64,000 bases of DNA from Clostridia bacterium (GTDB taxonomy: Bacteria; Bacillota; Clostridia; Oscillospirales; CAG-272), in contig JAGCNJ010000041.1 of NCBI GenBank assembly GCA_017646005.1, positions 3,363 to 67,362 of the forward strand. The letters are read 5' to 3'. The notes under the pieces were generated by a model. That model ran no database searches. It saw only the letters and a list, made by a program, of their open reading frames with translations, and was not told where the DNA came from. The position numbers and the translations under genes were made by a program. Each line of letters opens with the position of its first letter. Position 1 is the stretch's first letter. This document shows, in pieces, positions 9,891 through 58,682 of this stretch.

Positions 9891-12800
9891 ATGAAAAAAT
9901 CAAATCGCACAATTTCAATTTTCCTCTGTATAATAATGCTGCTTACATCGCTTCCCGCGATCAGCATTTCTGCAGAGGAAAGCTCGGTCGTTGCTATCGC
10001 AACCGACCTATATTATGTGTACGCATCAGGTTCAAAGCTCGATGTATCGCTTGAAAGCGATGATGACGGCGAGTATCTGCGCTTTAGTGCTGCACCCGGT
10101 ACATATGACAACAACGGACTTGTTGTCAACGTTTCCCATCACGACGTTGTAGCTCTCGATTATCCTTACATCAAGGTCGGCTACCGTACCGATTCACAGT
10201 CTGTCAAGGTAGATGTGAACATGGTCAGCTCAAAAGGTGAAAACTGGGTAAACAAACCGGCAGACCAGCTCAATAACAAGAACTGGAACGAGCTTATAAT
10301 TAATATCAATGACATCACCGGCGCAGGCGCAGACAAGATCCCCTCCCCCGGCGAAAAGGCTGTCAACCTCAGGCTAAAGCCCTGGATGAGCCATTCCAAG
10401 ACTCTTTCAACTCCTCAATACTACGACATAAGATACGTTGCTTACTTCAAAACAGAGGCTGACGCAAAGGCGTTCAAGTTCGACCCTAAAGCAGGCTACG
10501 ACGTTGCAGTTGATATGGAATTTATCAAGAGCATCCCTTACTACAAGGCAGATGACGCAACGCTCAACAAGTATATGAATGAAGCTCTTGCGCTTAAGGA
10601 TGATATCATTAGCAGCAAGACCGATGTAAAGTACACCGGCAAGGCTTACTATGTTTCATCCAAGGGTAACGACTTAAATGACGGTCTTACCCCCGCTACC
10701 GCATGGAAGAGCGTAACAAAGGTTTCAAACCAGGATTTTCTCAAGGAAGGCGATGCTGTCCTTTTCGAACGCGGCAGCATTTTCAGATTTGAAGGCGGAT
10801 TCACAACAAAAAAGGGTGTTACATACTCTACCTACGGAAGCGGCGCAAAGCCTAAGTTCATAGGCTCGATAGACGCGTCCTACCCTTCCGACTGGCTTGA
10901 AACGGGCGTTGAAAATGTATATGTTTACAAAAAGAGCCTCGGCGGTATAGAAGCTGACGTCGGACAGATCGTATTCGATATGGGCAGAGCCTGGGGCATC
11001 AAGCTCATGAGCGGCGTTTATATCGGTACAAACTCCAACGGTCTTGAAATGATCCCCTCAGAAACTCCCAAGGTAAACGGTCCCGAGGGTCTTAAGCACG
11101 ACCTTGAGTTCTGGCACGATGCTGAAAGCGGCAAGCTCTATCTCTATTCCAAGGAAGAAAACCCCGCAAAGCGCTTCTCTTCCATTGAGATTGTTGATAA
11201 GGGCAACGGCTTCTCAGGTAATGGTAACGGCGTAGTTATCGACAATCTCGATTTCTTCGGTTTCGGAAGCCACGGTATCGGCTACGGTGGAACGGTTACA
11301 AATCTCACCGTTCAGAACTGTGTATTCGGCTTTATCGGCGGCTCTCGTCAGGGTACTGACCCCAATACCACCACCCGTTTCGGTAACGCGGTTGAAATCT
11401 TCGGCGCGTGCGACGGATTTATTATAAGAAACTGCTTTGCGCACAACATTTATGACTGCTGTTGGACTATCCAGTTCCAGGGCGACCCCGGGGACAAGGG
11501 CAAGTGGTTCAAGAACGTTGAATTCTATAACAACGTAGCCTGCTATTCCAACACGGGTCTTGAAGTATGGATCAACAACAAGGGCCCCAACAGAGAGCTT
11601 TCGATGGGTATCGAAAATATGGATCTCCATCACAACTATACCTTCTATAACGGTTACGGCTGGAGCCAGCAGAGACCTAACAAGGACGGTAATATATTCT
11701 ACGGCGACCCGAGCATTACAACAACTCAGTACAAAAACTGCTCGGTGCACGATAACGTAGGTATGTTTGCTTCCAAGTGGCTCAACTATGTTCGTTATAC
11801 AGGTCTTGAGCATTATAACTTCAACAACAACGTATACTTCCAGCATAACAACAAGCTCTTCGGCGGCGTTGCCTTTAACCCTGCTAAGAGCGAAGGCACA
11901 ATCGGTCAGCACAAATACGATCAGGCAACTATGGGTATGCTTCTTGCAACAGGATTTGAGCCCGGCTCGGTATTCTACTACACAGAGCCTGATTACAAGA
12001 TCCCTCAGTACAACCCCGAAATCATGAAGTTTGATGATATAACCGAAAAGCACTGGGCTTATGACTACGTTGAAGCAGCGGTTATGAGAAATTACTTCAA
12101 CGGTACGTCCGAAACGACCTTCGCTCCCGATGCTTCCATGACACGCGCTATGCTCGTTACAGTGCTTTCGCGTATAACAGATGAAGAGATCAAGGTCGAA
12201 AAGGCTCCCTACACAGACGTTAATCAGTCCGCTTGGTATGCAAATGCGGTAAACTGGGCTTACAGCGCAGGACTTATCGCAGACGGCGTTACAAAATTCC
12301 GTCCCGACGATGCGGCGACCCGTGAGGAAATGGCAGATATGCTCTACCGCTTCACCCTCGGTCAGTACAAGGTAACGGCAATAACAGATCCTGCGCTTTC
12401 CTTCTCGGATGCGGCATCTGTTACCAAGGATTACGCGGCAGGCATATCCTTTGCTACGTCAAACGGAATCATATCGGGCTACACAGACGGTACTGTAAAG
12501 CCGAAGAATACCGCTACACGCGCCGAGGTTGCTACAATGATAAAGAGATTCGTTGATCTTTACAAATCTCTTAAGACCGATTTCAGCTACATTTCAAGTA
12601 AGACAGACTACGTTGTATTCACAGGCAACGAGCTCAACTCCATCACAGCGACCTCTCCCGGTGACAAGCGTATGATGAATACCGATACCGATTACCCGAT
12701 ATTAAGACTTATTCCTCAGCATCCCTCAAGCTCGGGCAATTACCCCAGACTTATGATGTTTGAACGTCTTTCCAAGGTAAATCTCGCTGATTATCCCTAT

Positions 12801-13850
12801 ATCAAGATCCGCCTTAAGGTTACTACCGAGGCAGACGAATTCAAGGTAACTCTTACCAAGAATGGTGAAGAAGGCGAAGCTATCGCGGAAATGACACCTA
12901 ATGACTGGGATACCGGAATCGTTTGCGTATACGATATGATCCGTCCCGGCAAGGCTTTCGACGGAAATTTCAACGGCGCACTTGCTATTTCCCCGTGGTC
13001 CGAGGGTGCAAAGCCTACCTACAACGTAGATACCGCAGATATCGAATATATCGGCTTCTTCCCCACCTATGCGGCGGCAGAGGCTTACAAGAGCGATCTT
13101 GAAGAAAATGCTGTAATGGTAAGCTTTTCTGTCGACGGCAAGGTAATAAGTGAGATTGCCGCAAAGAAGGGCGACACTCTCAAATACCCTGAGACCACGC
13201 CTTCAAAGTCCGCGAGCGTATTCAAGGGCTGGGACGTTGCAGAAGGTACGGTGATAAACGATAATCTCACAGTAAACGCAGTATTCGAAAAAACACCCGG
13301 TATGCCCTATGCTATGTTTGATGCAAGCAAGATCACGACAAAGATAAGCAATCACTTTGCCGAAAGCGTGCTTGAAGAAAACGGTAAAAAGTATCATCAC
13401 TTTGAAATCAAAGAAAATTCGGAATCTGCAGATGGTGTTCGCGTCTACACAAACTTTGCAAACGAAGCGTTTGATATAAAATCTGCGCCTGTTGCAAAGA
13501 TTGCTTTGAGAACAAATATAGCTTCATCTGATGCTCTTGATCTCAATGTATATCCTACCGCAAATCAGCGTATATGGGGCCCCAAGCCCAAATATACCGC
13601 AAAGGGTACCTGGACCGAAATGATACTCGATCTTTCTACGGCAAAGTTTATCGGCGGTGAGGGAGTTTCACAGGGACTTTCCGGCCCCGAATACTTCGAC
13701 ACATATTTTGACAACGGAGTATACGGTTTTCTCTTCAAGCCTTATCACCAAAACGGACTTGAAATGAAGGTCGGTGAATATATCGACATTATGGGCGTTG
13801 CATTCTTTGAAAGCGAAGCAGACGCAAATATGTTCTCGTTTGTAAAGTAA
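9891..13850 (+). CDS. giant secreted beta-helix protein, SLH-anchored paralog (N-module, beta-helix, 3xSLH, C1, Lis/Bac-like repeat, C2)
   Basis: I moved the start to ATG 9891 (MKKSNRTISIFLCIIMLLTSLPAISISA, RBS AGGAAAGGA). The ORF-track TTG start at 9849 is the last base of a TATAAT -10 box. Motifs are the same as in the other paralogs. SLH triad at ~12027-12565. Ends YIDIMGVAFFESEADANMF. Confidence 0.88.
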   Translation: MKKSNRTISIFLCIIMLLTSLPAISISAEESSVVAIATDLYYVYASGSKLDVSLESDDDGEYLRFSAAPGTYDNNGLVVNVSHHDVVALDYPYIKVGYRTDSQSVKVDVNMVSSKGENWVNKPADQLNNKNWNELIININDITGAGADKIPSPGEKAVNLRLKPWMSHSKTLSTPQYYDIRYVAYFKTEADAKAFKFDPKAGYDVAVDMEFIKSIPYYKADDATLNKYMNEALALKDDIISSKTDVKYTGKAYYVSSKGNDLNDGLTPATAWKSVTKVSNQDFLKEGDAVLFERGSIFRFEGGFTTKKGVTYSTYGSGAKPKFIGSIDASYPSDWLETGVENVYVYKKSLGGIEADVGQIVFDMGRAWGIKLMSGVYIGTNSNGLEMIPSETPKVNGPEGLKHDLEFWHDAESGKLYLYSKEENPAKRFSSIEIVDKGNGFSGNGNGVVIDNLDFFGFGSHGIGYGGTVTNLTVQNCVFGFIGGSRQGTDPNTTTRFGNAVEIFGACDGFIIRNCFAHNIYDCCWTIQFQGDPGDKGKWFKNVEFYNNVACYSNTGLEVWINNKGPNRELSMGIENMDLHHNYTFYNGYGWSQQRPNKDGNIFYGDPSITTTQYKNCSVHDNVGMFASKWLNYVRYTGLEHYNFNNNVYFQHNNKLFGGVAFNPAKSEGTIGQHKYDQATMGMLLATGFEPGSVFYYTEPDYKIPQYNPEIMKFDDITEKHWAYDYVEAAVMRNYFNGTSETTFAPDASMTRAMLVTVLSRITDEEIKVEKAPYTDVNQSAWYANAVNWAYSAGLIADGVTKFRPDDAATREEMADMLYRFTLGQYKVTAITDPALSFSDAASVTKDYAAGISFATSNGIISGYTDGTVKPKNTATRAEVATMIKRFVDLYKSLKTDFSYISSKTDYVVFTGNELNSITATSPGDKRMMNTDTDYPILRLIPQHPSSSGNYPRLMMFERLSKVNLADYPYIKIRLKVTTEADEFKVTLTKNGEEGEAIAEMTPNDWDTGIVCVYDMIRPGKAFDGNFNGALAISPWSEGAKPTYNVDTADIEYIGFFPTYAAAEAYKSDLEENAVMVSFSVDGKVISEIAAKKGDTLKYPETTPSKSASVFKGWDVAEGTVINDNLTVNAVFEKTPGMPYAMFDASKITTKISNHFAESVLEENGKKYHHFEIKENSESADGVRVYTNFANEAFDIKSAPVAKIALRTNIASSDALDLNVYPTANQRIWGPKPKYTAKGTWTEMILDLSTAKFIGGEGVSQGLSGPEYFDTYFDNGVYGFLFKPYHQNGLEMKVGEYIDIMGVAFFESEADANMFSFVK

Positions 13851-13860
13851 GCTTACACAA

Positions 13861-13891
13861 AAAGACCTTGCCATCGGGCAAGGTCTTTTTG
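13861..13891 (+). terminator. rho-independent terminator
   Basis: AAAGACCTTGCC-ATCG-GGCAAGGTCTTT perfect 12-bp stem followed by TT. Confidence 0.8.
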
Positions 13892-13895
13892 CATT

Positions 13896-13946
13896 CTATA
13901 TTTGTTCATCCCTCCCTATATTTGTTCACAATTCGGAGTGTATAAT
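13896..13946 (+). promoter_or_regulatory. promoter of 13981-18420 with two exact 13-nt direct repeats in place of a -35 box
   Basis: CTATATTTGTTCA at 13896-13908 and 13916-13928 (20 nt start to start). TATAAT at 13941-13946, preceded by TG. I see no recognisable TTGACA at 17-nt spacing. Confidence 0.6.
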
Positions 13947-13980: not shown

Positions 13981-16900
13981 ATGAAAAGACGCGTTTGTTT
14001 GATTTTAACATTACTCGCGCTTCTCTGCCTGTTCTGCGCGATATGGGCAAGCAACGTATCCGGAACGGATGCTACACCATACTACGAAGCTGACAGTAAA
14101 ACCATTGAAAAATACACAAACGAGGCTATGGAGCTTGTAAAAAAGATCACAAACAGTCCCACCGAGGTTACCTGGACGGGTACGGCCTATTATATATCCG
14201 AAAACGGCAACGATTCAAATGACGGCCTTACTCCGACTACCGCATGGAAAAGCCCGCTTAAAGTATCGGAGGCGGATTTCTTGAAGCCCGGTGATGCAGT
14301 GCTGTTTGAACGTGGCGGCATCTATCGCTATGAAGGTACTATCACGACTGTTAAGGGCGTTACCTACTCTGCCTACGGAAGCGGCAAAAAGCCCAGGCTT
14401 ATCGGCTCTTACGATGCATCATATGAGGGTGCTTGGAAAGAGAGCGAATACGAAAACGTATATTACTTTGACAAGAGGATCGTAGGAGTACATTACGACG
14501 TTGGACAGATAGTATTCGATTTAGGCAAGGCGTGGGGTATCAAGGTACAGGATCACGTGGTTATAGGCGTTGCCTCCAACGGACTTGAAACTCTTGACCA
14601 CGGAACGCCGTCTATATCAAATCCGGGTGATCTTAAAAACGATCTTCAGTTCTGGCACGAATATGACAGCGGATACGTATATTTGTATTCAAAATACGGA
14701 AATCCCACCGACCGCTTTGACTCTATCGAGGTCGTTGACAGAGGAAACGCAATTGGCGGAAAAGGCACTGACGTTGTCATAGATAACCTTGAATTCTTCG
14801 GATTCGGAAGCCATGGCATCGGATACGGGCAGACCGAGAATCTTTTAGTTCAGAACTGCATATTCGGATTTATCGGCGGCTCCCGTATAAGAACCACCGA
14901 CGATCTCGGAAGATTCGGTAATGCGGTCGAGATATTCGGAAACGGTAACGGATATACGGTTAGAAACAACTTTGCCCACAACGTATATGACTGTTGCTGG
15001 ACTATCCAGTTCCAGGGTGATCCGGGTGAAAACGGAAAGCATTTCAAAAACGTTGAATTTGCAAACAACGTAAGCATGTTTTCGAATACAGGCCCCGAAA
15101 TATGGCTTGTAAATAATGACGGCAACCATCCCGATGCTCCTTCTTCAATGGAAAACGTGAGGGTCCACCACAACTACAATCTCTACAGCGGATACGGCTG
15201 GAGCCAGCAAAGACCTGTAAAGGACGCTAACTTCTTCTTCGGCGGTGAACGAGATGTCGGCTCAAAGAAGGAATTCATAAATTGCTCGGTAGACAACAAT
15301 GTAGTACTGTTTTCGACCAAATGGTTAAGCTACTTACGTTATCTCGGTCCCGACTATCACAACTTCAACAACAACGTATATTTCCAGCACAACGATAAGC
15401 TTTACGGCGGTATTCCCACCGATCCCGAAAACGCACTCGGCAAGCTTGTTGAATACAAGTACGATCTTGAAACCGTAAGCAATCTGCTTGAAAGCGGAAT
15501 CGAAGCAGGTTCAACCTTCTATTACGTTAACAGCGATTATGAAATAGCGCAGTACAGCCCGGAAATATTAAACTTCGAAGACATTAACAATCATTGGGCA
15601 CGCCGGAATATCCAAGCAACTATAATGCGCGGATATATGAACGGCATAAGTTCTTTTGAATTTGCGCCTAATGCTTCTATGACACGCTCGATGCTTACCA
15701 AGGTGCTTATGCGCCTTTACTACGACGATGAAGTGTTCACAGAAGCCCCTCTCTCCGATGTAAATCAGAGCTCGTGGTATTCAAGCTCGGTAAACTGGGC
15801 TTATAAACTCGGAATAATCGACAATAAACTCACAAAGTTCCGCCCCGACGAACCGATCACACGTGAGGAAATCGCTGATATGCTTTACAGACTCACCTAC
15901 AGCCGCTTCAAGTGTGAAAGCTACGAAGGAAAGGCACTTGATTTCACGGATGCGTCAAGTGTTTCTCCCGAATATGCGGCAGGTGTTGCGTTCGCAATAG
16001 AAAACGGTATTATATCGGGCTACACCGATGGACACGTAATGCCAAGAAACACTGCTACACGCGCCGAGGTGGTAACTATGATAAACAGATATTATGATCT
16101 TTACCACCAGCTTGAAACCGATTACAGCAGACTTACAACAAACAATACGACTTCCGTTGTATTTGACGCAAACGAGCTTTCCGGATTTGTTAAAGCAACA
16201 AATGGAAGCTTCTACGTGGAAAATCCCCAAACAGAAGCACCTGTACTTGTATTAAACCCGATTTACGGAAGCGGAAATTTCCCGAAGCTTGTAATAAACG
16301 AATCTACGGCAGATATAAATCTGTGCGATTACCCATATGTAAGATTCCATATTAAGCGTACAGGCAAGTCCAAGCTTTACAACGTTAAATTGGATAAAAG
16401 CAATGCTTCAAAGGACGGCGTTTACAACTTTGATTCCTCTGTATACGGCTATAACAGCTATATCTTCTGCGTATACGATATGTTCAAGCCGACAGAAATA
16501 TCAAACAGCTCAAAGGAGCTTTCGCTTACTCTTTCACCCTGGCATACGGGTGATGCTCCCGTATACGGCGTTGATACGGCAGAAATTGAATATATCGGAT
16601 TTTTCCCCTCTCTTGAAATGGCACAAAACTATGAGGGTGTATTTGAAAAGAACGGCGTAAAGGTAAGGTTCATCTTTGACGGTAAGGTCGTGGAAGAAGA
16701 ATATTTACTCTCTCAAAGCAAGTTTGAATATCCTGACATAAGCTTAAGCAAGCCCGGATATACCTTCAAGGGCTGGAGTATAGCCGAAGGTACTCTGATC
16801 ACAACCGACACCGATGTTTTTGCCGTATTTGAAAAAGCATCCGCTCAGCCCGTAGCGGTATACAATACCGATAATATGATCGTTACCGCAGGCACGGGAC

Positions 16901-18420
16901 TCGTCAGCTCGTATGAAAACGAAAACACAAAGAGCTACGTGCGCTTCAGCGTAACCGAAGACGGCAAGTCGGTTGATGGAACGTCTGCGACGATAGGACT
17001 TACAAATCTTGAATTTGATATAAAGAAAGCTCCTGTCGCAAAGGTACTTATGAGAACCAATATCGCTTCCTCGGACGTAATCGACCTGAACGTAGCAATT
17101 GCAAGCAACTGCAGGCTTTGGGGACCTAAGCCTGCATACGAAATCAAGAGTGAATGGTTTGAGCTTACGCTTGATTTTGCATCGTTAAACTATACCGGAG
17201 GTTCAAACGTTGACAAGGGACTTACCGCAAAGGAATACTATGAAAAGTACTTAAGCGGAAGCTTATACTCATTGATGTTCAAGCCCTATAAATCTGCAAA
17301 TACCGCTATGAAGAAGGGTGAGTACTTGGATATTCAAAGCATTGCATTCTTTGCAAATGAGGAAGATGCAAATGCATATTCCTTCGGTATGCCTGCATTG
17401 CTTCTTGACTCCAATAAGCTCACGGCTTTGGAAAACGACAAATTCACCGCACAGACCTTAAGCGAATTTTGCAACAGCTTTATTCGCCACACAGTTAAAG
17501 CAGACGGTAAGTCAAATCAGAACACAAGGATAACGCTCGGACTCGACAAGACCTACCGGGGAATTGAAAAAGCTCCGTTCGTCAAGCTTATGCTCAGAAC
17601 CAACATTGCATCTGCCGATAAGTTAAGCTTCGGACTTGGCAGTTCGACAGGCTCGGAGATTACAGGCACAAGCATAGAATACGGTCAAAAGGGACAGTGG
17701 TATGAGTACGTGCTTGATCTTTCAGATGCAGATTCAATTGAAGCAAGTTCGATCTTGATTTCTCCGTATTATGCAAACGAGATTGACATGAAGGCGGAAG
17801 AATATATAGATATTATGAGTATCGCTTTCTTCAAGAGCAAAAAGGACGCAATCGACTTTACCTACACATCTGTACCTACAGCGGCATTCACAGTCGACGG
17901 TATTACCCCTGTAGCAAGTGCCGATTTTACGCTCTCCACAGAAAATGAAAACGGCAAGAGATTTTACCGCTTCTATGTAAGTGAAAGCGGCAAATCGCTC
18001 GATTCAACAAGAGCTACGGCAGTATTGGATAATGCAAGCTTCAAGGTAAAGGACGCTCACATAGTCAAGCTGGCGATAAGAACAAACATTGCTTCCTCAA
18101 GTGCAATAGACTTCAATATTTACGTTGCTCAAAAAACGAGAATATGGGGACCTAAGCCCGAATACACTCGCAAGGGCGGATGGATGGAGCTCACGCTTGA
18201 TCTTTCCGCACTGAACTATACGGGCGGCGAAGGCGTCGAAAAGGGTCTTTCCCCGAATCAGTATTATGAAAAATATTTTACAAACAGTATTTATTCATTC
18301 ATGTTCAAGCCCTACTATCAGACCGGACGTGCTATGGTCAAGGGCGAATATTTCGATGTTTTGGGCATAGCATTCTTTGAGTCGCTCGAAGAAGCGGAAA
18401 AATTCTCGTTTATAAAGTAA
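13981..18420 (+). CDS. giant secreted beta-helix protein, SLH-anchored paralog (no N-module; C1 plus three tandem C2 modules)
   Basis: I moved the start to ATG 13981 (MKRRVCLILTLLALLCLFCAIWA, RBS GAGGAG). The track start at 13951 lies only 5 nt after the -10 box. SLH triad at ~15571-16110. Tandem C2 modules at 16837-17388, 17389-17871 (degenerate) and 17872-18417. Confidence 0.88.
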   Translation: MKRRVCLILTLLALLCLFCAIWASNVSGTDATPYYEADSKTIEKYTNEAMELVKKITNSPTEVTWTGTAYYISENGNDSNDGLTPTTAWKSPLKVSEADFLKPGDAVLFERGGIYRYEGTITTVKGVTYSAYGSGKKPRLIGSYDASYEGAWKESEYENVYYFDKRIVGVHYDVGQIVFDLGKAWGIKVQDHVVIGVASNGLETLDHGTPSISNPGDLKNDLQFWHEYDSGYVYLYSKYGNPTDRFDSIEVVDRGNAIGGKGTDVVIDNLEFFGFGSHGIGYGQTENLLVQNCIFGFIGGSRIRTTDDLGRFGNAVEIFGNGNGYTVRNNFAHNVYDCCWTIQFQGDPGENGKHFKNVEFANNVSMFSNTGPEIWLVNNDGNHPDAPSSMENVRVHHNYNLYSGYGWSQQRPVKDANFFFGGERDVGSKKEFINCSVDNNVVLFSTKWLSYLRYLGPDYHNFNNNVYFQHNDKLYGGIPTDPENALGKLVEYKYDLETVSNLLESGIEAGSTFYYVNSDYEIAQYSPEILNFEDINNHWARRNIQATIMRGYMNGISSFEFAPNASMTRSMLTKVLMRLYYDDEVFTEAPLSDVNQSSWYSSSVNWAYKLGIIDNKLTKFRPDEPITREEIADMLYRLTYSRFKCESYEGKALDFTDASSVSPEYAAGVAFAIENGIISGYTDGHVMPRNTATRAEVVTMINRYYDLYHQLETDYSRLTTNNTTSVVFDANELSGFVKATNGSFYVENPQTEAPVLVLNPIYGSGNFPKLVINESTADINLCDYPYVRFHIKRTGKSKLYNVKLDKSNASKDGVYNFDSSVYGYNSYIFCVYDMFKPTEISNSSKELSLTLSPWHTGDAPVYGVDTAEIEYIGFFPSLEMAQNYEGVFEKNGVKVRFIFDGKVVEEEYLLSQSKFEYPDISLSKPGYTFKGWSIAEGTLITTDTDVFAVFEKASAQPVAVYNTDNMIVTAGTGLVSSYENENTKSYVRFSVTEDGKSVDGTSATIGLTNLEFDIKKAPVAKVLMRTNIASSDVIDLNVAIASNCRLWGPKPAYEIKSEWFELTLDFASLNYTGGSNVDKGLTAKEYYEKYLSGSLYSLMFKPYKSANTAMKKGEYLDIQSIAFFANEEDANAYSFGMPALLLDSNKLTALENDKFTAQTLSEFCNSFIRHTVKADGKSNQNTRITLGLDKTYRGIEKAPFVKLMLRTNIASADKLSFGLGSSTGSEITGTSIEYGQKGQWYEYVLDLSDADSIEASSILISPYYANEIDMKAEEYIDIMSIAFFKSKKDAIDFTYTSVPTAAFTVDGITPVASADFTLSTENENGKRFYRFYVSESGKSLDSTRATAVLDNASFKVKDAHIVKLAIRTNIASSSAIDFNIYVAQKTRIWGPKPEYTRKGGWMELTLDLSALNYTGGEGVEKGLSPNQYYEKYFTNSIYSFMFKPYYQTGRAMVKGEYFDVLGIAFFESLEEAEKFSFIK
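16837..18417 (+). repeat. three tandem copies of the family C2 module (16837-17388, 17389-17871 degenerate, 17872-18417)
   Basis: Each copy has a ...[AP].VK[IL]..RTNIAS...D.N... stretch and ends EY[LIF]DI..IAFF....[DE]A..F. Copies 1 and 3 also carry R[IL]WGPKP.Y and LNYTGG..V.KGL...[EQ]YYEKY...S.YS.MFKPY. Confidence 0.85.
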
Positions 18421-18433
18421 ACCAAAGCAAAAG

Positions 18434-18466
18434 GTCTGTCGGAATTCCGGCAGACTTTTTGCTTTT
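18434..18466 (+). terminator. rho-independent terminator
   Basis: GTCTGTCGG-AATT-CCGGCAGAC stem followed by TTTTTGCTTTT. Confidence 0.75.
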
Positions 18467-18470
18467 ATAT

Positions 18471-18501
18471 CTATATTTGTTCATATTTGTTAATGTATAA
18501 T
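18471..18501 (+). promoter_or_regulatory. promoter of the beta-mannosidase gene carrying the same 13-nt motif
   Basis: CTATATTTGTTCA at 18471-18483, followed by the half-copy TATTTGTTAA. TATAAT at 18496-18501. The motif-to-TATAAT distance (25 nt) is identical to that at 13916/13941. Confidence 0.6.
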
Positions 18502-18543: not shown

Positions 18544-20931
18544 ATGTACTTAACAAAATGGAAAATGACCTACGGCACTCATAAGGATCTTCCCTGTACT
18601 GCTCCATGCAGTATGTACAGCGTTCTCCTGGATCACAAGATTATTGACGATCCCTTTTACGGTCTGAATGAAAGAAAATATATGCATCTTTCGGAAAATG
18701 GCTGCAGATTTGAATGTAGGTTTGATGTCGATCGCGATCTACTCTCAAAGGAGTATATTGAGCTTACCTTTCTCGGTCTTGACACAATATGTGATATCAC
18801 GCTTAACGGCACAAGTCTTGACAGCGTAAGGAATATGCACAGGGCGTATACCTATGACGTTAAAGCCCTGCTCAAAGAGGGTAATAATATAATCGAGCTT
18901 GACTTTGATTCTCCCGTTAAATTTTTTGAAGAGATGAACAACAAGCATTTTCTCTATACCAACGAGGACACTATTCCCGGTGCTGCTCATCTGAGAAAGG
19001 CTTTATATATGTCAGGCTGGGATTGGGGCCCGACTCTTCCCGATATGGGTATTTTCCGCCCAGTCATACTCGACGCCTATAACGAAGATAAGATAGATAA
19101 CGTAAACGTCCGCCAGCATCACGAAAACGGTGAGGTTACACTTGATATCGAGGTTGAAACCAAGCACGGCAAGAGCGTTGATATTTACACTGAGATCGAC
19201 GGCAAGGAGATCTTGCTCAAAAACGGTAAGGGTAAAATAAAAATAGAGAATCCAAATCTCTGGTGGGTAAGAGGCTACGGCGAGCAGTACCTTTATAAGC
19301 TCACCGTAAAGATGGTAAGCGAAGGCAAGATCATTGACACAGATACTAAAAGCATCGGTCTTCGCACACTTACTGTAAGCACCGAAAAGGATCCTACCGG
19401 AAGTGAATTCTGCTTTGTAATAAACGGTGTCAAGATCTTCTCTATGGGAGCAAACTACGTCCCTCAGGACAATTTGCTTTCACGTATAAATCCTCAAAGA
19501 ACCGAAGATCTTATAAGGACCGCGGTTGACGCCAACTTCAACACCATTCGTATATGGGGCGGCGGATACTATCCCGAGGATGAATTTTACGACATATGCG
19601 ATAAATACGGCATTATGGTGTGGGAGGACTTTATGATCGCCTGCATCAACGTATGGCTTACGAATGATATGAAAAAGGAGTTTATCGCTGAAGCCGAGTA
19701 TAACATAAAGCGTTTGCGTACCCATCCCTCGCTTGCACTTCTCTGCGGAAACAACGAGATGGAAGAAGGTGTTTGCAATTGGGGCATCGGAACAAGTATG
19801 CTCGTACGAGAGGATTATCTTGAGCTTTACGAGCGCATCTTCCCCGAAATTTGCGCAAGACTTGCTCCCGACGTATTCTACTGGCAGGCAAGTCCCTCTT
19901 CCGGAGGCGGCTTTGATGACCCTACCTGCGAAACCAAGGGCGACGTTCACTATTGGAAGGTTTGGCACGGCGGTGTACCCTTCACCGAATACCGCAAGCA
20001 CAATTTCCGCTTCTGCTCTGAATACGGCTTCGAATCTTTCCCTTCTTTCAAGACTATCAAGGAATTCTGTACCGAAGCAGATATGAACTGCTTTTCAAGA
20101 GTTATGGAAAACCATCAGAAATGCCCGGGCGGTAATAAAAAGATACTGATGTACATGGCAGACAACTACCTGTATCCCGTCACCTTTGAAACTATGGTTT
20201 ATGCTTCTCAGCTTTTGCAGGCAGATGCCATAAAATACGGCGTTGAGCATTTCAGACGCAAGAGGGGCTATTGCATGGGCTCGATATATTGGCAGTTCAA
20301 CGATTGCTGGCCTGTCGCTTCCTGGTCAAGCATTGACAGTAATCTCAGATACAAGGCTCTTCACTATGCGGCGAAAAAGTTCTATGCGCCGATCGAAATG
20401 GGACTTTTCCTTGAAAATGACACTCTTACCGTAAATATTTCCAACGAAACGATGAATGATTTTGAAGGAGAGGTAAGGCTTTATACAAGCACGTCTGACT
20501 TTGAAATAAAAGCCAAGAACATCTGTACGGCTTCGGTCGAAAGGCTCAAATCAGCAGATGTTATTACTGTAAAGGTCGATACAAGCGACAAGTATAACTC
20601 CTACGTATACGCAGACCTGTACGACAAGGACGGCAATTTCATTTGCAGAAACACTCAGCTTCTTACTGCGGCAAAGCACTTCGATTGGAAAAAGCCGTGT
20701 ATCAAGATCGATACACGCGACATAGACGGCGGCGTTGAGTTTTCGGTAACAAGCAACACCTTCACAAAGGGCGTAAATATTGATTTTGACGGATACGACG
20801 TTGTCCTGTCCGACAATTTCTTTGATATCACAAATGAAAACGCTTATGTTGTCACGGCAAAAACCGATCATTCAGCCGATGAGCTTGAAAAAGCAATTAA
20901 GATTATGACTGTTTACGATATCGGCAGATAA
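18544..20931 (+). CDS. GH2 beta-mannosidase, cytoplasmic (no signal peptide)
   Basis: N-terminal DPFYGLNE motif. TIM-barrel segment IRIWGGGYYPEDEFYDICDKYGIMVWEDFM. Candidate acid/base LLCGNNEMEE and nucleophile FCSEYGFESFPS. The 795-aa length is typical of bacterial GH2 mannosidases. RBS AAGGAG. Confidence 0.85.
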   Translation: MYLTKWKMTYGTHKDLPCTAPCSMYSVLLDHKIIDDPFYGLNERKYMHLSENGCRFECRFDVDRDLLSKEYIELTFLGLDTICDITLNGTSLDSVRNMHRAYTYDVKALLKEGNNIIELDFDSPVKFFEEMNNKHFLYTNEDTIPGAAHLRKALYMSGWDWGPTLPDMGIFRPVILDAYNEDKIDNVNVRQHHENGEVTLDIEVETKHGKSVDIYTEIDGKEILLKNGKGKIKIENPNLWWVRGYGEQYLYKLTVKMVSEGKIIDTDTKSIGLRTLTVSTEKDPTGSEFCFVINGVKIFSMGANYVPQDNLLSRINPQRTEDLIRTAVDANFNTIRIWGGGYYPEDEFYDICDKYGIMVWEDFMIACINVWLTNDMKKEFIAEAEYNIKRLRTHPSLALLCGNNEMEEGVCNWGIGTSMLVREDYLELYERIFPEICARLAPDVFYWQASPSSGGGFDDPTCETKGDVHYWKVWHGGVPFTEYRKHNFRFCSEYGFESFPSFKTIKEFCTEADMNCFSRVMENHQKCPGGNKKILMYMADNYLYPVTFETMVYASQLLQADAIKYGVEHFRRKRGYCMGSIYWQFNDCWPVASWSSIDSNLRYKALHYAAKKFYAPIEMGLFLENDTLTVNISNETMNDFEGEVRLYTSTSDFEIKAKNICTASVERLKSADVITVKVDTSDKYNSYVYADLYDKDGNFICRNTQLLTAAKHFDWKKPCIKIDTRDIDGGVEFSVTSNTFTKGVNIDFDGYDVVLSDNFFDITNENAYVVTAKTDHSADELEKAIKIMTVYDIGR

Positions 20932-20941
20932 AGGTTATATC

Positions 20942-21196
20942 AGACTCGATGCCGTGCTTGTTGAGGATGCTTCGACGCGATCGGTCATATTCACCGCAGA
21001 AAGCACGGAGGTTGCGGCAAATCTGAAATCGGATGAATACTTCGCAAATTATTTCAACGAGTCAATATCGCTTATCATAATAAAGCCATATAAGGCAGTG
21101 GGGATCTGAATGGATACCACGGAATATTATGATATCGCAGGCGTTGCGTTCTTCGCAAGCAAGGAGGATGCAGACAAGTATTCATTCTTCAAATAA
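20942..21196 (+). pseudogene. 3'-terminal remnant of a paralog (last ~80 codons of a C2 module) with an in-frame TGA
   Basis: Manual translation in the frame of nt 20942 reads RLDAVLVEDASTRSVIFTAESTEVAANLKSDEYFANYFNESISLIIIKPYKAVGI*MDTTEYYDIAGVAFFASKEDADKYSFFK*. It aligns to the C2 ends of the paralogs (e.g. GLSGPEYFDTYFDNGVYGFLFKPYHQNGLEMKVGEYIDIMGVAFFESEADANMFSFVK). TGA at 21107-21109. It has no start or upstream body and begins 11 nt after the mannosidase stop. Confidence 0.85.
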
Positions 21197-21240: not shown

Positions 21241-21311
21241 CGACAAAAAAGTAATATTTCTTCGCAAAAATATTATAGCAAATTCGATTTTCGATATGAT
21301 ATAATATTTAC

Positions 21312-21565
21312 AAGCCTAATTTCCTTTTCGATCATACGCTTCCGCAACGTATATTGACGAGCGAAACGCGACCTTCGCTCACGGGTACGTTGCGGTAAGC
21401 GATGATATATTCAATAATATCACTGGTTTGACATACGTTTAAGACAGACTCACTTGAGAATAAAAAGCACGCTGTTACCATCCCTCTTGTTCCGATAAGC
21501 TAATTTCATATTTTCCTTTCCATAGAACATCCCTCCCCTGCAACATGCGGGAGGGATTTCGCTTT
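21312..21565 (+). ncRNA. candidate ~250-nt structured transcript or leader (function unknown)
   Basis: An orphan TGaTATAAT element lies at 21297-21305. A nested hairpin follows: outer stem 21337-21351 / 21386-21401 (15 bp, one bulge) and inner stem GAGCGAA 21359-21365 / TTCGCTC 21374-21380. A GC-rich hairpin (ATCCCTCCC 21529-21537 / GGGAGGGAT 21549-21557) is followed by the U-rich TTCGCTTTATCTTT. No ORF of 60 aa or more occurs on either strand in 21200-21660. Confidence 0.25.
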
Positions 21566-32102: not shown

Positions 32103-32930
32103 TTATATAATGAGATATTTTTCGCGCAAAAGCATCGCCGCGCCCGTATATTCAAGCTCTTTCGCTTTTGTATCGCTTACAGAGCTTGCGTTTATATTTT
32201 CAAGCTCAAGCTCGGAATAAACTTCATCCGCTGACAAAAATTCAATTATCGCCCCAAGCTTGATCTCAAGCTCTTGCTTATCCTTTGCACATACAGCGCC
32301 AAGCACAGGCTCACTTCCTTTATACGCAACAAGTGCACCACATCCGGCTTTGGATACGTACAAGGCAGAGGCTTCTTTGACAGCGCTTAACTTCGCAAGC
32401 TCGCTTTTACAGACCTCACTCACCTTTAATGAAAGTGAAGCGGCGATATCATCCGAAAGCCTTTGACAAAACTCCCTGTCAGCGTCTTCACTGTAAACCG
32501 AACACACGCCGACAAGTCTTCCGACAAGATTGTTTTCAAATACAAACGGCATCAACGCTTCCATAACCGCTCCTGCCGCGCCGTTTTTCTCAAACGTGAA
32601 CTCAAGCTCACCAAGCTTTTCAAGGGTAAGGCTTAAGATGACCAACTTTATCTTTTCTTTATGCAAAGCAAGAACTATCAGCTTTTTTTCGTCCGAAAGG
32701 CTTATATGCTTCGCCTTTCTTCCTACTCCGCCACCCTCTGATTTTGCGTAGGTGACCGTTCCCTTTTCAAGCAAGGCATCGGTTATCTTTCCTACGGTCA
32801 TAAGGCTGAGTCCGGTCTTTTCCGATATTTCAAGACGGCTGATATGTCGGTCTTCGGGAATGCACGAAAATATTCTTTTGATGCTCTCCTGTCTTATTCT
32901 GTCAAGACCAAAATCCTCCAACCTTACCAC
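32103..32930 (-). CDS. ROK-repressor-like protein (N-terminal winged HTH; sugar-kinase half looks degenerate)
   Basis: ISRLEISEKTGLSLMTVGKITDALLEKG...GGGVGRKAKHISL resembles ROK repressor N-termini. I could not see a DxGxT ATP motif or a Zn-Cys motif. The start is uncertain (GTG 32930 or TTG 32921). Confidence 0.5.
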   Translation of the reverse strand: MVRLEDFGLDRIRQESIKRIFSCIPEDRHISRLEISEKTGLSLMTVGKITDALLEKGTVTYAKSEGGGVGRKAKHISLSDEKKLIVLALHKEKIKLVILSLTLEKLGELEFTFEKNGAAGAVMEALMPFVFENNLVGRLVGVCSVYSEDADREFCQRLSDDIAASLSLKVSEVCKSELAKLSAVKEASALYVSKAGCGALVAYKGSEPVLGAVCAKDKQELEIKLGAIIEFLSADEVYSELELENINASSVSDTKAKELEYTGAAMLLREKYLII

Positions 32931-40822: not shown

Positions 40823-41623
40823 TCACTTACTTCGTGATCTTTTCACTACAGACGGAGGCTTACCGAAGGTCTTTTTATATTGCTTGAAAAATCCCGAATA
40901 ATCACAGAAACCGCATTCAAGAGCCGCCTCGGTAGGAGATTTGCCGTCAAGAATTTTTTCATTTGCAAGCGCAAGCCTTTTCTTTAGCACGTACTTATAA
41001 AGAGATATATTCATTTCACGTCTGAAAGCGTGAGAAATTCCCGACTCCGAAATATTAAGATCAGCCGACATCAGCTCAAGTGTTATCCGCTCGTGTATGT
41101 TCGCTTCTATCCATTCAATGCATCTCTGTACCGTATCCGACCTGCCTGAAAAATCCCCATCTAGCCTCTTAGCACGCCTTATTTCATATACAAGAAGCGC
41201 GCCTGCGGCAAAAGCAAGCGTTTCTGCCGTTTTATCATTTTCAAACTCACGGGCTGTATTTATAAGTCTTTCAAGAATAGGGCTTATCTGCTCGTTTATC
41301 TCGCATATGAAAGTTTTTTCAAAGCTGCCTGCGAAAAGCTTATCAAGCTCGGATTCACTATCAAAATGTATCACCAGCCTGTGATATTTTTCAACATCCC
41401 TCGTGACATTAAGCTGATGATAACACTGCTTAGGTATGACCAAGAGCGTTTTCGGTTTAAGTTTGAGATGAAGATTATCAGAAACAAAATCAGCCTCTTC
41501 TCCTATGAAATATATTATCTCATTGTACGGATGAAACTCCCGTCCCACAACGTCGCTTGCGCCCTTTGCATATTTGACGGATATCCGGTCGCTTTTTATA
41601 ATTTTCTTAAAGCCGTTGCTCAT
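40823..41623 (-). CDS. AraC-family transcriptional regulator (cupin-like N-domain plus C-terminal HTH)
   Basis: SESGISHAFRREMNISLYKYVLKKRLALANEKILDGKSPTEAALECGFCDYSGFFKQYKKTFGKPPS. I moved the start to ATG 41623 because the track TTG start at 41683 is the first base of a TTGACA -35 box. Confidence 0.85.
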   Translation of the reverse strand: MSNGFKKIIKSDRISVKYAKGASDVVGREFHPYNEIIYFIGEEADFVSDNLHLKLKPKTLLVIPKQCYHQLNVTRDVEKYHRLVIHFDSESELDKLFAGSFEKTFICEINEQISPILERLINTAREFENDKTAETLAFAAGALLVYEIRRAKRLDGDFSGRSDTVQRCIEWIEANIHERITLELMSADLNISESGISHAFRREMNISLYKYVLKKRLALANEKILDGKSPTEAALECGFCDYSGFFKQYKKTFGKPPSVVKRSRSK

Positions 41624-41683: not shown

Positions 41684-41783
41684 TGTTTTTTATATAGGTA
41701 GTCCATTTTCTATTCAAAATCTGTCAAAATAAACTTTGTTCATTTCCTACAATGTGACCGTGTATTTTCGGCATTTTTAACAA

Positions 41784-41874: not shown

Positions 41875-44511
41875 ATGAAAAGATTTTTTGCCATGCTGCT
41901 TGCCATTATCATGATCGCAACAGCCACACCGATGATGTCTCATGCGGATGAGGCTCCCGAAAAAACGCTCTTTTCGGCGTATGACATCTACTACGATGCA
42001 CAGATCGCGAACTTCACCACCGTTCAGCCCGTGCTTGAAATTTCGGACGGCGTACCCTACGCTTCCATGAAGGCTGAGCCCGGCACCTACGGCAACGGCG
42101 CACTTATGATGACGATAAAATCAAGCGCGCTCAAATTCAACGTGACCGAATATCCGTTCATTGCCGTCGGATACAAAACAGATGCGGTAACTCCCGGTGT
42201 CGATATCACTATGATGTATGACAACAATGAAACCTGGAGAAAAGAGGGCGGTTCAAGATACAAGATAACAAGCAACGGAAAGCTTGAAAAGCTTATATGC
42301 AATGCGCTCGATCTCAACGCCAAGGTGGAAATCAAGCCCGATTATCAGGGCATTGATATCAGACTGAAATTCTGGGGCGGTCATACGCAGGTGCTTTCAA
42401 CCAACCAGTATTTCGACGTTGCTTACATAGCCTTTTTCAAAACGCTTGATGAGGCAAATGCTTTCGTGTACAATCCCATAACCGAAGAAGAATACTTTGC
42501 AGAAAGTGACCTCAAAATAGTAAATAAGACCGTCACTGACGTTGATGAAAATACACTTCTCTCTTATCTTGCTCAGGCAGAAGCGCTTAAGTACGATATC
42601 ATCAACACCCCCAACACAGAATTCCCTCAGGCTAAAAAGACATATTACGTTTCGCCCGACGGCGATGATAACAACGACGGTCTTTCACCCGAAACAGCCT
42701 GGAAATCGCTTGAAAAGGTCGGAAGCGCAACCTACGGAAAGGATGACGTTGTACGCTTTAAGCGCGGCGGGATCTGGCGCGGTACTCTTAATCTTAAAAA
42801 CGGTGTGATCTACTCGGCTTACGGCGAGGGTCCCAAGCCCGAAATTTGGGGCTCTATCCCCGGCGAGGGCGCAGAAAATTGGGAGCTCACAGATGCTCCC
42901 AACGTATGGGCGTTCACAACGCCCCTTGAAAACGACAAGCACCCCGGAAACATCGTATTTAACGAGGGCGAAGCCTGGGGCATCCACGTTTACACCGACG
43001 GCAAGGGCAACAGACACGATCAGGGTACTGTTTTCAACGGAATCGAAACGGTTGAATGTCCCCCTACCCCTTACACAGGCTACAAGGATATCTTCCACAA
43101 CAATCTTGAATTCTGGTACGACGAAGAAGCAAAGACCGTGTATATGTACTGCGAATACGGCAACCCCGGAGAGTATTTTGATGACATCGAATTATCCCTT
43201 CGCCCCGATATGGTCAGCGGAGGAGGAAAATATATCATTTTCGATAACATCTGCCTTAAATATGGCGGCGGTCACGGAGTATCCGTTATGAACAGCGAAA
43301 GCGTCACGGTGCAGAATTGCGTGTTCGGCTGGCTCGGCGGAGGCGGACTCGGTAACGCCGTTCAGAACTGGGACAACTGCAAGGACTTCACGATCAATCA
43401 CAACTACGCTTATCAAATATACGACTGTGCGTGGACCACGCAGTCAAGCGTTACCTATGCCGACAGAACGATGGTGGACGTTGTTATGACAAACAACATC
43501 TCAGAGCGCTGCAACACGGGTGTTGAGATATGGCTGAGCGGTGACAACACCGACAAAAAGGGACTCCTTAAAAACTTTACCGTAGAAAACAACTTCACTC
43601 TCTACGGCGGGTGCGGCTGGAGCCATCAGCGCCGCCGCGATATCAAGGACGGCAACTTCGTTTTCGGAGGCACGGGAATTGACAGAGTCGTTTCGCGTGA
43701 AAATATGCATTTTGAAAACAACGTAAACATCCACGCAACACATATCGGACTTTATGCACGCTTCATAGGTCCTGCCGGCTTTATGTTCGACAACAACGTG
43801 TATATGATGCAGAGAGGCAAGTCGATGGCTTCTGCCGCATCAAATCTCAAGGACGGAAGCGGCTCGCTTATCAGATATCCCTACGATGAAAAGGGGATTT
43901 CCACGCTTGCCACGCTCGGCAACGACGTAAACTCCACCTTCTACTATCTCGCCGATGACTTTGAGCCGCACACAGACTCAAAGCTTCAGGACTTCACAGA
44001 CGTATACGGGCATTGGGGACTTGAAAATATCAGCTTTGCAGTAATGAAGGGACTCTTCTCGGGCACTACCGATACGACCTTCTCACCCAACGCGCCTATG
44101 ACGCGTGCAATGCTCGTAACCGTGCTTTCTCGCCTTGCAGGTGACGTTGATACCAATGCTGTATCGGGCTTCTCCGACGTAAAGGCTGACGCATGGTACA
44201 CATCTGCGGTAGCATGGGCAGAGGCTAAAGGCATCGTTGACAAGGGCGCTTCCTTCAGACCCGATGCCAACGCTACCCGTGAGGAAATGGCTGATATGCT
44301 CTACCGTTTCGCAAAAGCTTACGGTAAGGACACAAGCAAAAAAGCTGAACTTAAATTCACGGACGCTTCAAGCATCAAATGCAAGGACGCCGTCGCTTAT
44401 TGCGTAGGTGCCGGCATCATCGCAGGCTATAGCGACAACACCGTCAAGCCCGCAGGCGAGGCTACACGCACCGAGGTAGCTACGATGCTTAAGAGATTCA
44501 TCTTCGCTTGA
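41875..44511 (+). CDS. secreted beta-helix paralog with N-module and C-terminal SLH triad (no C modules)
   Basis: RBS GGAGG. Signal peptide MKRFFAMLLAIIMIATATPMMSHA. N-module ending YFDVAYIAFFKTLDEANAF. Cap motif TYYVSPDGDDNNDGLSPETAWKS. SLH triad at ~43984-44508 ends the protein. Confidence 0.88.
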   Translation: MKRFFAMLLAIIMIATATPMMSHADEAPEKTLFSAYDIYYDAQIANFTTVQPVLEISDGVPYASMKAEPGTYGNGALMMTIKSSALKFNVTEYPFIAVGYKTDAVTPGVDITMMYDNNETWRKEGGSRYKITSNGKLEKLICNALDLNAKVEIKPDYQGIDIRLKFWGGHTQVLSTNQYFDVAYIAFFKTLDEANAFVYNPITEEEYFAESDLKIVNKTVTDVDENTLLSYLAQAEALKYDIINTPNTEFPQAKKTYYVSPDGDDNNDGLSPETAWKSLEKVGSATYGKDDVVRFKRGGIWRGTLNLKNGVIYSAYGEGPKPEIWGSIPGEGAENWELTDAPNVWAFTTPLENDKHPGNIVFNEGEAWGIHVYTDGKGNRHDQGTVFNGIETVECPPTPYTGYKDIFHNNLEFWYDEEAKTVYMYCEYGNPGEYFDDIELSLRPDMVSGGGKYIIFDNICLKYGGGHGVSVMNSESVTVQNCVFGWLGGGGLGNAVQNWDNCKDFTINHNYAYQIYDCAWTTQSSVTYADRTMVDVVMTNNISERCNTGVEIWLSGDNTDKKGLLKNFTVENNFTLYGGCGWSHQRRRDIKDGNFVFGGTGIDRVVSRENMHFENNVNIHATHIGLYARFIGPAGFMFDNNVYMMQRGKSMASAASNLKDGSGSLIRYPYDEKGISTLATLGNDVNSTFYYLADDFEPHTDSKLQDFTDVYGHWGLENISFAVMKGLFSGTTDTTFSPNAPMTRAMLVTVLSRLAGDVDTNAVSGFSDVKADAWYTSAVAWAEAKGIVDKGASFRPDANATREEMADMLYRFAKAYGKDTSKKAELKFTDASSIKCKDAVAYCVGAGIIAGYSDNTVKPAGEATRTEVATMLKRFIFA

Positions 44512-44575
44512 GATTTGTGCTTTACGGTTTAAAGCGGGCTTCTTCAAAAAAATGCTATAATTATTAACAACTTAA

Positions 44576-44623
44576 CAGATGCTGCCAATGCGTTAAGCAG
44601 GCAGCGTCTGTTTTGTTTATTTT
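44576..44623 (+). terminator. rho-independent terminator after 41875-44511
   Basis: CAGATGCTGCC / GGCAGCGTCTG stem followed by TTTTGTTTATTTT. Confidence 0.7.
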
Positions 44624-44660
44624 GACTACTATTTCAATTATAATATGTGCAAAATACGAA

Positions 44661-44689
44661 TTGACCGTAAAGAACGCATATGATATAAT
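44661..44689 (+). promoter_or_regulatory. distal promoter upstream of 44872-49752
   Basis: TTGACC (44661-44666), 17-nt spacer, TGaTATAAT (-10 at 44684-44689). Confidence 0.55.
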
Positions 44690-44799
44690 ATTGTAGCTAT
44701 TATGGTAATTTATGCTTTATCGTGCCCGTCCGTTCCGATCCGGTCAGTTCGGGTGCTTCAATAGTGTACTATTTGCAATAATAAAGTCACTTTTTCGCA

Positions 44800-44829
44800 T
44801 TGTTTGTCCACACGGCAGTATGATATAAT
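44800..44829 (+). promoter_or_regulatory. proximal promoter upstream of 44872-49752
   Basis: TTGTTT (44800-44805), 18-nt spacer, TGaTATAAT (-10 at 44824-44829). It has the same extended -10 as the distal promoter. Confidence 0.5.
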
Positions 44830-44871
44830 GCAGTTACCATAGTTCAAGTAAAACGTGAAAGGAAACCACCA

Positions 44872-49752: not shown

Positions 49753-49782
49753 TAAAGATTTTTATTCTATGTTCCTGATGCA

Positions 49783-49826
49783 TTTTGGGACAGATTTGAA
49801 ATCCGGTTTTCAAATCCGTCCCAAAA
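49783..49826 (+). other. long intercistronic hairpin between the two dockerin genes
   Basis: TTTTGGGACAGATTTGAAA-TCCGG-TTTCAAATCCGTCCCAAAA forms a 19-bp stem with one A/C mismatch. No T-run follows on the plus strand, and I see no promoter in the 103-nt gap. Confidence 0.5.
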
Positions 49827-49855
49827 GCAAAAATATAAATTAATGGAGGAAAACT

Positions 49856-57295: not shown

Positions 57296-57781
57296 TCACA
57301 GCACAAGCACTGCGGCAAGCAATGCACTCATAAAGCCTATGCTTTTATAAAGCCTTGAGCGAAGCGGAAGCTCTGTCTTTGCTTCACTTAAGCGCTCGGC
57401 ACATTTGTTTTTATAATAGTTACATCTTTTAACCTCCTGCTCGGCGCTTATCGCGCCGAGTCCGTCTGCAAATTCACACAAAAGTGAAATATCGCCGTCG
57501 TTAAGAAAAAGCGCATCCGCACACAGCCTTAACGCATCCGAAAAGCTTTTTTTCTCACGCAGATGCTTAAGAAATCCGCATTCTTCAAGATACTCGTCGC
57601 AATAGCTGTCAAAGAACTCACCGGTCGGGGTTAAAAACGCCGATATTTTCGACGTAAGCGACTCTATAAGCCTCAGGATCGCTTCGAGCGAACGCAAACG
57701 GCATTTTAACATTGACGCATACTCAAAGCCCCAGGCTCCCGTTGCAAGCGATATAAACATTATTCCTATAAGCTTTGTCAC
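57296..57781 (-). CDS. spoIIIAB: stage III sporulation protein AB
   Basis: 161 aa with an N-terminal TM segment, a helical body and a C-terminal TM segment. Overlaps the spoIIIAA stop by 4 nt. Confidence 0.75.
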   Translation of the reverse strand: MTKLIGIMFISLATGAWGFEYASMLKCRLRSLEAILRLIESLTSKISAFLTPTGEFFDSYCDEYLEECGFLKHLREKKSFSDALRLCADALFLNDGDISLLCEFADGLGAISAEQEVKRCNYYKNKCAERLSEAKTELPLRSRLYKSIGFMSALLAAVLVL

Positions 57782-58632: not shown

Positions 58633-58653
58633 AGTCACATTCTCCTTTGTTGA

Positions 58654-58682
58654 TGTATATGCAAATGTAATAACAAATATTC
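58654..58682 (-). promoter_or_regulatory. sigma-E-like sporulation promoter of the spoIIIA operon
   Basis: The minus strand reads GAATATT (58682-58676), 14-nt spacer, CATATACA (58661-58654). Compare the Bacillus sigma-E pattern (-35 containing ATA, 14-nt spacer, CATACA-T). Confidence 0.4.

Follow-up and report, generated by a model that had tools for sequence, protein, structure and literature searches.

A 13-nt sequence, CTATATTTGTTCA, sits at the -35 position of two promoters in the genome of an uncultured gut Clostridia species: promoter A, upstream of a gene for a large SLH protein (gene E), and promoter B, upstream of a GH2 beta-mannosidase gene. Judging by its sequence setting, this box is very probably functional as a promoter element, and it is a fresh instance of a well-known kind of element. 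The reading that we favour, and hold with moderate confidence, is that of a lineage-specific box, most likely for an activator that binds direct repeats, through which gene E and the mannosidase would be co-regulated. If functional, the box defines a minimal two-gene regulon that couples one SLH-anchored member of an array of beta-helix proteins to an intracellular beta-mannosidase, and this regulon hints at the substrate of the array enzyme family, a glycan containing beta-mannosides. It would also be a clean natural case of regulatory rewiring by promoter capture, in which a gene with a canonical promoter in sister species inherited the activator-type promoter of the paralogue that it ousted. 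The box touches no long-standing open question.

The window (the whole stretch of DNA analysed, 64,000 nt) comes from the MAG of this Clostridia organism, which encodes a spoIIIA operon and dockerin proteins. Near-identical contigs (>=99.95%) recur in several gut-type metagenome assemblies; their ENA assemblies include ERZ28653731 (scaffold_41) and ERZ28653801 (scaffold_72). The available contigs represent one strain (99.95% identical) and carry no population signal.

Anatomy of promoters A and B

The box occurs three times on the plus strand, each time as an exact match: promoter A has a distal copy at 13896-13908 (about -57 to -45) and a proximal copy at 13916-13928 (about -37 to -25, at the -35 position), and promoter B has one copy at 18471-18483 (about -37 to -25). 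An earlier note made from the letters of the window had reported an exact 13-mer starting at 13896, 13916 and 18471, and all three copies are there, against a mean of 0.00 matches in 100 dinucleotide-preserving shuffles. The window holds 101 different 13-mers with at least three copies, in about 24 clusters. CTATATTTGTTCA is the only one that is wholly non-coding; Markov-3 simulations expect 0.5 such words across the window. Every other cluster is represented in coding sequence, chiefly where the SLH paralogues are conserved. Once hairpins are set aside, two 15-mers are the longest direct matches in the 4.5 kb of intergenic DNA: one is the box plus one base on each side (TCTATATTTGTTCAT, identical at 13895 and at 18470, where it spans 18470-18484) and the other an extended -10 common to two promoters. 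The identity of the box breaks off sharply after these 13-15 nt, and the flanks are unrelated. The box is not palindromic and has no dyad symmetry; its centre lies near -31.

A near-perfect inverted copy exists as well, at 13506-13521 (15 of 16 positions against 13916-13931, 394 bp apart), so placed that the 3' end of gene D and the gene's terminator lie between the two arms. It is probably coincidental, because this arm lies in the codons of an RTNI motif conserved among the paralogues. An invertible element or MITE built on the 13506/13916 repeat was rejected on the same ground, the left arm being conserved coding sequence.

Gene E and the mannosidase gene are separate transcription units, as judged from the fact that a very stable predicted terminator precedes each of them on the plus strand. 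Upstream of promoter A lies the terminator of SLH paralogue D (gene 9891-13850; terminator 13858-13891), with a 15-bp stem and a fold of -24.4 kcal/mol (z = -8.1); upstream of promoter B lies that of gene E (18424-18465), with 21-nt arms that are 90% complementary and a fold of -29.3 kcal/mol (z = -8.9).

Downstream of the box both promoters carry the same -10 region, TGTATAAT, at 13939-13946 in promoter A and 18494-18501 in promoter B, each on the plus strand and each with a perfect TATAAT (13941-13946 and 18496-18501). As the earlier note stated, and as direct reading confirms, the proximal box begins 25 nt ahead of TATAAT in both; the end of the box is 12 nt from TATAAT and 10 nt from TGTATAAT. 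Promoters A and B thus align as box-N10-TGTATAAT, with 13/13 and 8/8 identities in the two conserved blocks and only 4/10 in the spacer, and the rest of the two intergenic regions is unrelated save for generic terminator and ribosome-binding-site features. A conserved site that overlaps -35 at a fixed distance from the -10 is present in both member promoters (n=2).

A promoter scan requiring at least 4/6 matches to the -35 found no sigma-70-type -35 for the TATAAT of either promoter, and the hexamers at 16-18 bp from the -10 are TATTTG, ATATTT and TATATT. The TG of both promoters abuts TATAAT directly and is out of TGn register. The absence of a TTGACA-like -35, unlike in most other promoters of the window, had been claimed before and holds: the promoters read for five other paralogues combine an identifiable -35 with an extended -10. 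These are TTTACA-N17-TGG-TATAAT (paralogue B), TTGACA-N18-TACAAT with TGA (C), TTGACT-N17-TATAAT with TG (D), TTGACT-N17-TAAAAT with TG (F) and TTGTCA-N17-TATAAT with TGC (G). The exception is the promoter of gene H, a dockerin/GDSL gene, which has TGA-TATAAT and no good -35. At 44798-44829 it reads CATTGTTTGTCCA-N13-TATAAT, matching the box at 9/13 positions and at nearly the same place; it was not retained as a further box site, because about 0.3 such matches are expected among about 25 promoters.

Two side observations concern these other promoters. The TTTGTCCA of the H promoter recurs in the AraC/SLH intergenic regions of two related species (L091 at about 14935, L124 at about 3990). The second intergenic 15-mer, the extended -10 ATATGATATAATATT, is identical at 21294-21308 and 44678-44692; its promoters sit about 370 nt upstream of SLH gene F and about 190 nt upstream of dockerin gene H, distances that imply long leaders with hairpins (e.g. 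21342-21395). The leaders have no Rfam match and do not align with each other, and an Rfam search of the whole window returned zero RNA families.

How are the repeats arranged? Promoter B contains a perfect tandem of period 10, ATATTTGTTC/ATATTTGTT, at 18473-18491 (TRF: 1.9 copies, 100% matches), which the earlier note did not list. Its first 10-bp unit, ATATTTGTTC, occupies 18473-18482 on the plus strand; the second, ATATTTGTTA (18483-18492, same strand), abuts it and fills the spacer at about -25 to -16, reaching up to 3 nt before the -10. The natural unit of the box may therefore be 10 bp. Such units start 42 and 22 nt before TATAAT in promoter A and 22 and 12 nt before it in promoter B, and because all these starts are in 10-bp register with the -10, the units lie on one face of the helix. 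A direct repeat two helical turns apart, as the earlier note proposed for the motif, is thus found in promoter A, where the period is 20 bp, but not in promoter B, where it is 10 bp: the sequence 20 bp upstream of the box in promoter B matches it at only 6/13 positions, and the second unit lies instead 10 bp downstream. The broader idea, that a box on the -35 position with repeats on one face is the expected anatomy of an activator-dependent promoter, stands.

In the reading that we favour, the core of the box would be the 10-bp unit ATATTTGTTC, conserved as a 13-15-mer, (T)CTATATTTGTTCA(T), and the box would substitute for the -35 hexamer of two sigma-A-type promoters that retain a perfect TATAAT. 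A factor that reads direct repeats on one face would bind at about -37 to -25, with its second unit at -57 to -45 in promoter A and at -25 to -16 in promoter B, and would recruit or position RNA polymerase in place of the contact between sigma region 4 and the -35. Gene E and the mannosidase would thereby be switched on together.

Could the box be the operator of a repressor instead? The protein, a repressor that binds direct repeats, would then obstruct polymerase at a promoter for which the perfect -10 alone suffices. The box does overlap the core promoter, and the second unit of promoter B fills the spacer, a usual position for steric repression; indeed, this placement (-25 to -16) is more typical of repression. 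However, a promoter with neither a -35 nor a correctly placed TG would be weak for a Firmicute even when derepressed, whereas other promoters of the window combine a -35 with TGn, and the copy at -57 to -45 in promoter A falls outside the core promoter. On this evidence we regard a repressor as unlikely, although, given the unit that fills the spacer of promoter B, it is the foremost functional rival.

The SLH array, the mannosidase and the replacement scar

The box lies within a tandem array of large paralogues that spans 1-25.7 kb of the window: A (partial), B (from 1668), C (5786), D (9891), E (13981) and F (21734). Paralogue G lies at 41875, and H and I are dockerin-bearing domain relatives. 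Protein identity among the paralogues is 40-60%, and about 45-50% for those that flank promoters A and B; Pfam hits within them are restricted to SLH repeats. Gene E (13981-18420, plus strand) encodes a secreted protein of 1479 aa with a Pfam SLH hit, made up of an N-terminal glycanase-like domain in the form of a right-handed beta-helix, three SLH repeats and C-terminal repeat modules. An AlphaFold model of its residues 26-530 (pLDDT 92.6, 34 homologues used) has GH120 XylC, GH138 BT_1002 and GH136 (lacto-N-biosidases) as its top Foldseek matches among solved structures. Because the model of E is a beta-helix with glycoside hydrolase matches, the array most likely encodes glycan-degrading enzymes anchored to the cell wall.

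The family comprises at least seven tandem paralogues of 1100-1480 aa (window 1-25714 and 41875-53881; locus L117 10001-13426), with an architecture in which an N-terminal right-handed beta-helix without a Pfam family is followed by SLH repeats in mid-protein and by C-terminal repeat modules. The beta-helix domain is closest in fold to GH120, GH138 and GH136, and this catalytic-like domain is also found fused to dockerin and GDSL esterase domains (genes at 44872 and 49856). At locus L118 (17178-17300) one metagenome scaffold seems to carry a 155-bp insertion between paralogues B and C; it was rejected as a polymorphism, being a scaffolding gap with a run of N and duplicated sequence on either side.

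The gene behind promoter B (18544-20931, plus strand) encodes a GH2 beta-mannosidase with the Pfam domains Glyco_hydro_2_N2, Mannosidase_ig and Ig_mannosidase. It has no visible signal peptide, and the enzyme is predicted to be cytoplasmic. Both genes linked to the box are glycan-active, the one as a GH2 mannosidase and the other, going by the model, through a beta-helix GH-like domain.

Directly after the stop codon of the mannosidase lies the remnant of an SLH paralogue. This pseudogene (20933-21195, plus strand) comprises 88 codons with an in-frame stop (...KPYKAVGI*MDTTEYYDIAGVAFFASKEDADKYSFFK*), and frame translation and alignment identify it as a C-terminus, with 24-29 identities over 57-62 columns to that of every paralogue. 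In five related species the mannosidase (75-80% identity) is located among nagA-, ROK- and GH1-type genes or elsewhere, and these five orthologues are preceded by TTGAAT/TTGAAA-N17-TATATT promoters with TGn, in which the box is absent. Because of the remnant and of this different locus in sister species, the mannosidase gene appears to have moved into the array and ousted most of an older paralogue. It is probably now driven by a foreign promoter, through promoter capture: the mannosidase would have gained control by the box while replacing most of the SLH paralogue.

The array clearly evolves by duplication and bears a gene replacement scar, and short sequences may be copied in it without any function. 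Under such a reading the box is a relic of short-patch copying, by gene conversion or slippage, between the intergenic regions of a rapidly rearranging array. All three copies are perfectly identical, the tandem in promoter B (a perfect 10-bp one) looks like slippage, and the box is absent from each related genome examined. Three perfectly identical 13-mers are indeed more uniform than most transcription factor sites, a uniformity that could reflect recent copying. Yet the identity extends over only 13-15 nt, with no decaying similarity in the flanks, and a 20-bp duplication in promoter A should also have copied the 7 intervening bases, of which 2 match. The distance to TGTATAAT is constant in both promoters despite the differing spacer, and promoters A and B are otherwise without a -35 element, so something must supply its function. 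Copying alone is, in our judgement, quite unlikely.

Constraint on the box and on its position is favoured over neutral decay or simple tandem duplication, because the paralogues are old and their divergence is saturated, the identity of 13-15 nt is abrupt, and the distance to the -10 has been kept while the spacer has diverged. The flanking paralogues are about 45-50% identical, so neutral DNA between them should be randomised.

Further copies and candidate regulators

No other promoter in the window has a copy of the box with two or fewer mismatches, and the neighbouring sequence of this genome, 12 kb on the left and 10 kb on the right (about 22 kb, for 86 kb covered in total), contains no copy either. 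The box is absent upstream of the five mannosidase orthologues at 75-80% identity, which give no conservation signal, and from the related SLH arrays L091-L093, L123 and L124. Within the 86 kb and the related loci examined, it thus marks neither further genes nor orthologues. The 80 mannosidase loci taken from GTDB are too distant for footprinting, and the closest homologue of gene E in the protein collections has 52% identity. The frequency of the 10-mer unit across about 1.6 Mb of related loci is that expected by chance. The pattern box-N12-TATAAT has 23 hits in JGI metagenomes, all on unrelated AT-rich contigs and at about chance level. A search of the literature with the motif string gave no relevant paper, and none of the known operators of Rex, Cheo/LexA, TnrA, CtsR, SinR, 0A box or CRP type fits. 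No candidate regulator adjoins gene E or the mannosidase gene, and no Response_reg gene was found within the 86 kb of this genome.

Could a sigma factor read the box directly? The box would then be the -35-type element of an alternative sigma (SigE, SigK or a carbohydrate-responsive one) and TGTATAAT its -10, and conservation in two parts at a fixed spacing is what a single holoenzyme would leave. The putative SigE-type spoIIIA promoter on the minus strand (about 58650-58690), GAATATTTGTTAT...CATATACA, has ATATTTGTT in common with the box, and AC-N17-CATAGTGTA in promoter A resembles a SigK promoter. But the 10-mer shared with spoIIIA is at chance level, dozens of 10-mers recurring among intergenic regions; the -10 has the perfect TATAAT of sigma-A promoters, not the CATA found in those of SigE and SigK; ATATT stands 2-4 nt further from the -10 than it does in the spoIIIA promoter; and the SigK-like CATAGTGTA match is missing from promoter B. 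Moreover, 13-15 conserved bases exceed a -35 element, and the fixed-spacing pattern is, as noted, no more frequent than chance in metagenomes. The two promoters do not share a SigE- or SigK-type -10 at the correct spacing. SigE, as suggested by the ATATTTGTT in spoIIIA, was rejected on the sequence of the -10, on the spacing and on the chance-level sharing of the 10-mer, and we hold an alternative sigma in general to be highly improbable.

It seems just as improbable to us that box-N10-TGTATAAT is the signature of an uncharacterised sigma that serves surface glycanase genes in an Oscillospirales-like lineage and was recruited to the relocated mannosidase. SigI/RsgI of cellulosome producers follow a logic analogous to that of such a sigma; the promoter sequence here differs from theirs.

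The spoIIIA promoter is an observation in its own right: GAATATT-N14-CATATACAT on the minus strand (58650-58690), shortly before the ribosome-binding site of spoIIIAA (57778-58638), is a putative SigE-type promoter.

The earlier note had also looked to an AraC-family gene on the minus strand (40823-41623), on the strength of the 8-mer TTTGTTCA between it and paralogue G. The 8-mer is present, one position further on than the note had it (41735-41742, not 41734-41741), but it is not significant: the window has 7 copies of TTTGTTCA against 3.3 expected, and three of the seven are the boxes themselves. The copy at 41735 lies about 70 bp upstream of the canonical G promoter, TTGTCA-N17-TATAAT. As this 8-mer, at chance frequency, is the sole evidence, a link between the box and the AraC-family gene is unsupported.

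The wider proposal is that either the AraC-family protein or the ROK-like HTH protein (32103-32930) binds the box in the manner of AraC/XylS. The AraC-family gene does lie in the same SLH/dockerin neighbourhood, AraC-family genes are found inside the SLH arrays of related species too, and TTTGTTCA occurs once in the AraC/G intergenic region. Against this, the 8-mer is at chance frequency, the full box matches at only 9/13 positions there, some 70 bp above a canonical promoter, and the gene is 22-27 kb away from the boxes. Related arrays lack the box, and their AraC genes are not orthologues of this one. The classical AraC/XylS half-site would be placed about 10 bp further upstream than the box. 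As for ROK-type regulators, they recognise palindromes, and the box has no dyad symmetry. Binding by either protein is thus very unlikely.

At least three related genomes have AraC-family genes inside their SLH-paralogue arrays (window 40823-41623, minus strand; L091 14023-14874; L124 3120-3965), and these genes fall into two or more non-orthologous lineages. The window protein and its counterpart in a related array share 26% identity over the HTH only. An apparent conservation of TTTGTYCA between the AraC/SLH intergenic regions of the window and L091 was dropped, the AraC proteins being non-orthologous. In NCBIfam the window protein comes closest, below cutoff, to a family of regulators annotated as neighbours of YSIRK surface antigens.

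Comparison with known systems

An instructive clostridial case is XydS/XydR of Clostridium cellulolyticum, where two CAZyme loci carry identical short blocks on and just upstream of the predicted -35 (PMC3572039). Both loci are under the control of a single regulator responsive to a plant polysaccharide, XydR; it is an AraC-type response regulator with EMSA evidence (PMC3572039). The likeness to the present case is that two separate clostridial CAZyme loci have blocks in common in the -35 region (PMC3572039). The XydR blocks differ in sequence from the box and lie far upstream of the start codons.

Sites of the LytTR family, also at home in Firmicutes, include the VirR boxes of C. perfringens and those of AgrA, ComE and PlnC. 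They resemble the box in being direct repeats of 9-13 bp, with a period of about 21 bp and a GTT core, next to a weak -35 in a Firmicute. LytTR repeats, however, lie upstream of the -35, whereas the box lies on top of it with a period of 20 or 10 bp, and no LytTR gene was seen within the 86 kb of this genome.

Class II promoters of AraC/XylS proteins, for example araBAD with I1-I2 and Pm of the TOL plasmid, have a proximal half-site at about -35 to -51, which ends at or just inside the -35. They and promoter A share two direct half-sites about two turns apart (21 bp for AraC/XylS, 20 bp for the box), and in both cases the proximal site reaches into the -35 region and the -35 itself is poor. 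There are differences too: the box, at -37 to -25, is shifted towards the start by about 10 bp relative to I2 or the proximal XylS site, promoter B has one full box plus a 10-bp tandem, and the neighbouring AraC gene has no demonstrable link to either promoter. The AraC/XylS layout put forward in the earlier note is not supported: the box reaches to -25, a full helical turn nearer the start. A protein of the AraC/XylS or LytTR type is a less likely reader of the box.

The Pho-box type is represented by the sites of E. coli PhoB at pstS and phoA, the TT(A/T/C)ACA repeats of B. subtilis PhoP and the F/C sites of OmpR. As in these OmpR/PhoB-type sites, the direct repeats of the box keep a 10-11-bp register on one helical face; like a Pho box, in both promoters the box takes the place of the -35, with about 10-12 bp between its end and a good -10, and in promoter A its upstream units follow in 20-bp steps. 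Within the unit, TGTTCA/TGTTAA is similar to half-sites of the TGTWAH/TGTTTA type, such as those of WalR and enterobacterial PhoP. There are differences: the period is exactly 10 (promoter B) or 20 (promoter A) where that of the Pho box is 11, the intervening units of promoter A are unrecognisable, there is no response regulator nearby, and the second unit of promoter B extends further downstream, to -16. By analogy, the position and periodicity of the box resemble the Pho-box type more than the sites of AraC/XylS or LytTR proteins, and the probable reader of the box would be an OmpR/PhoB-type response regulator with a winged helix.
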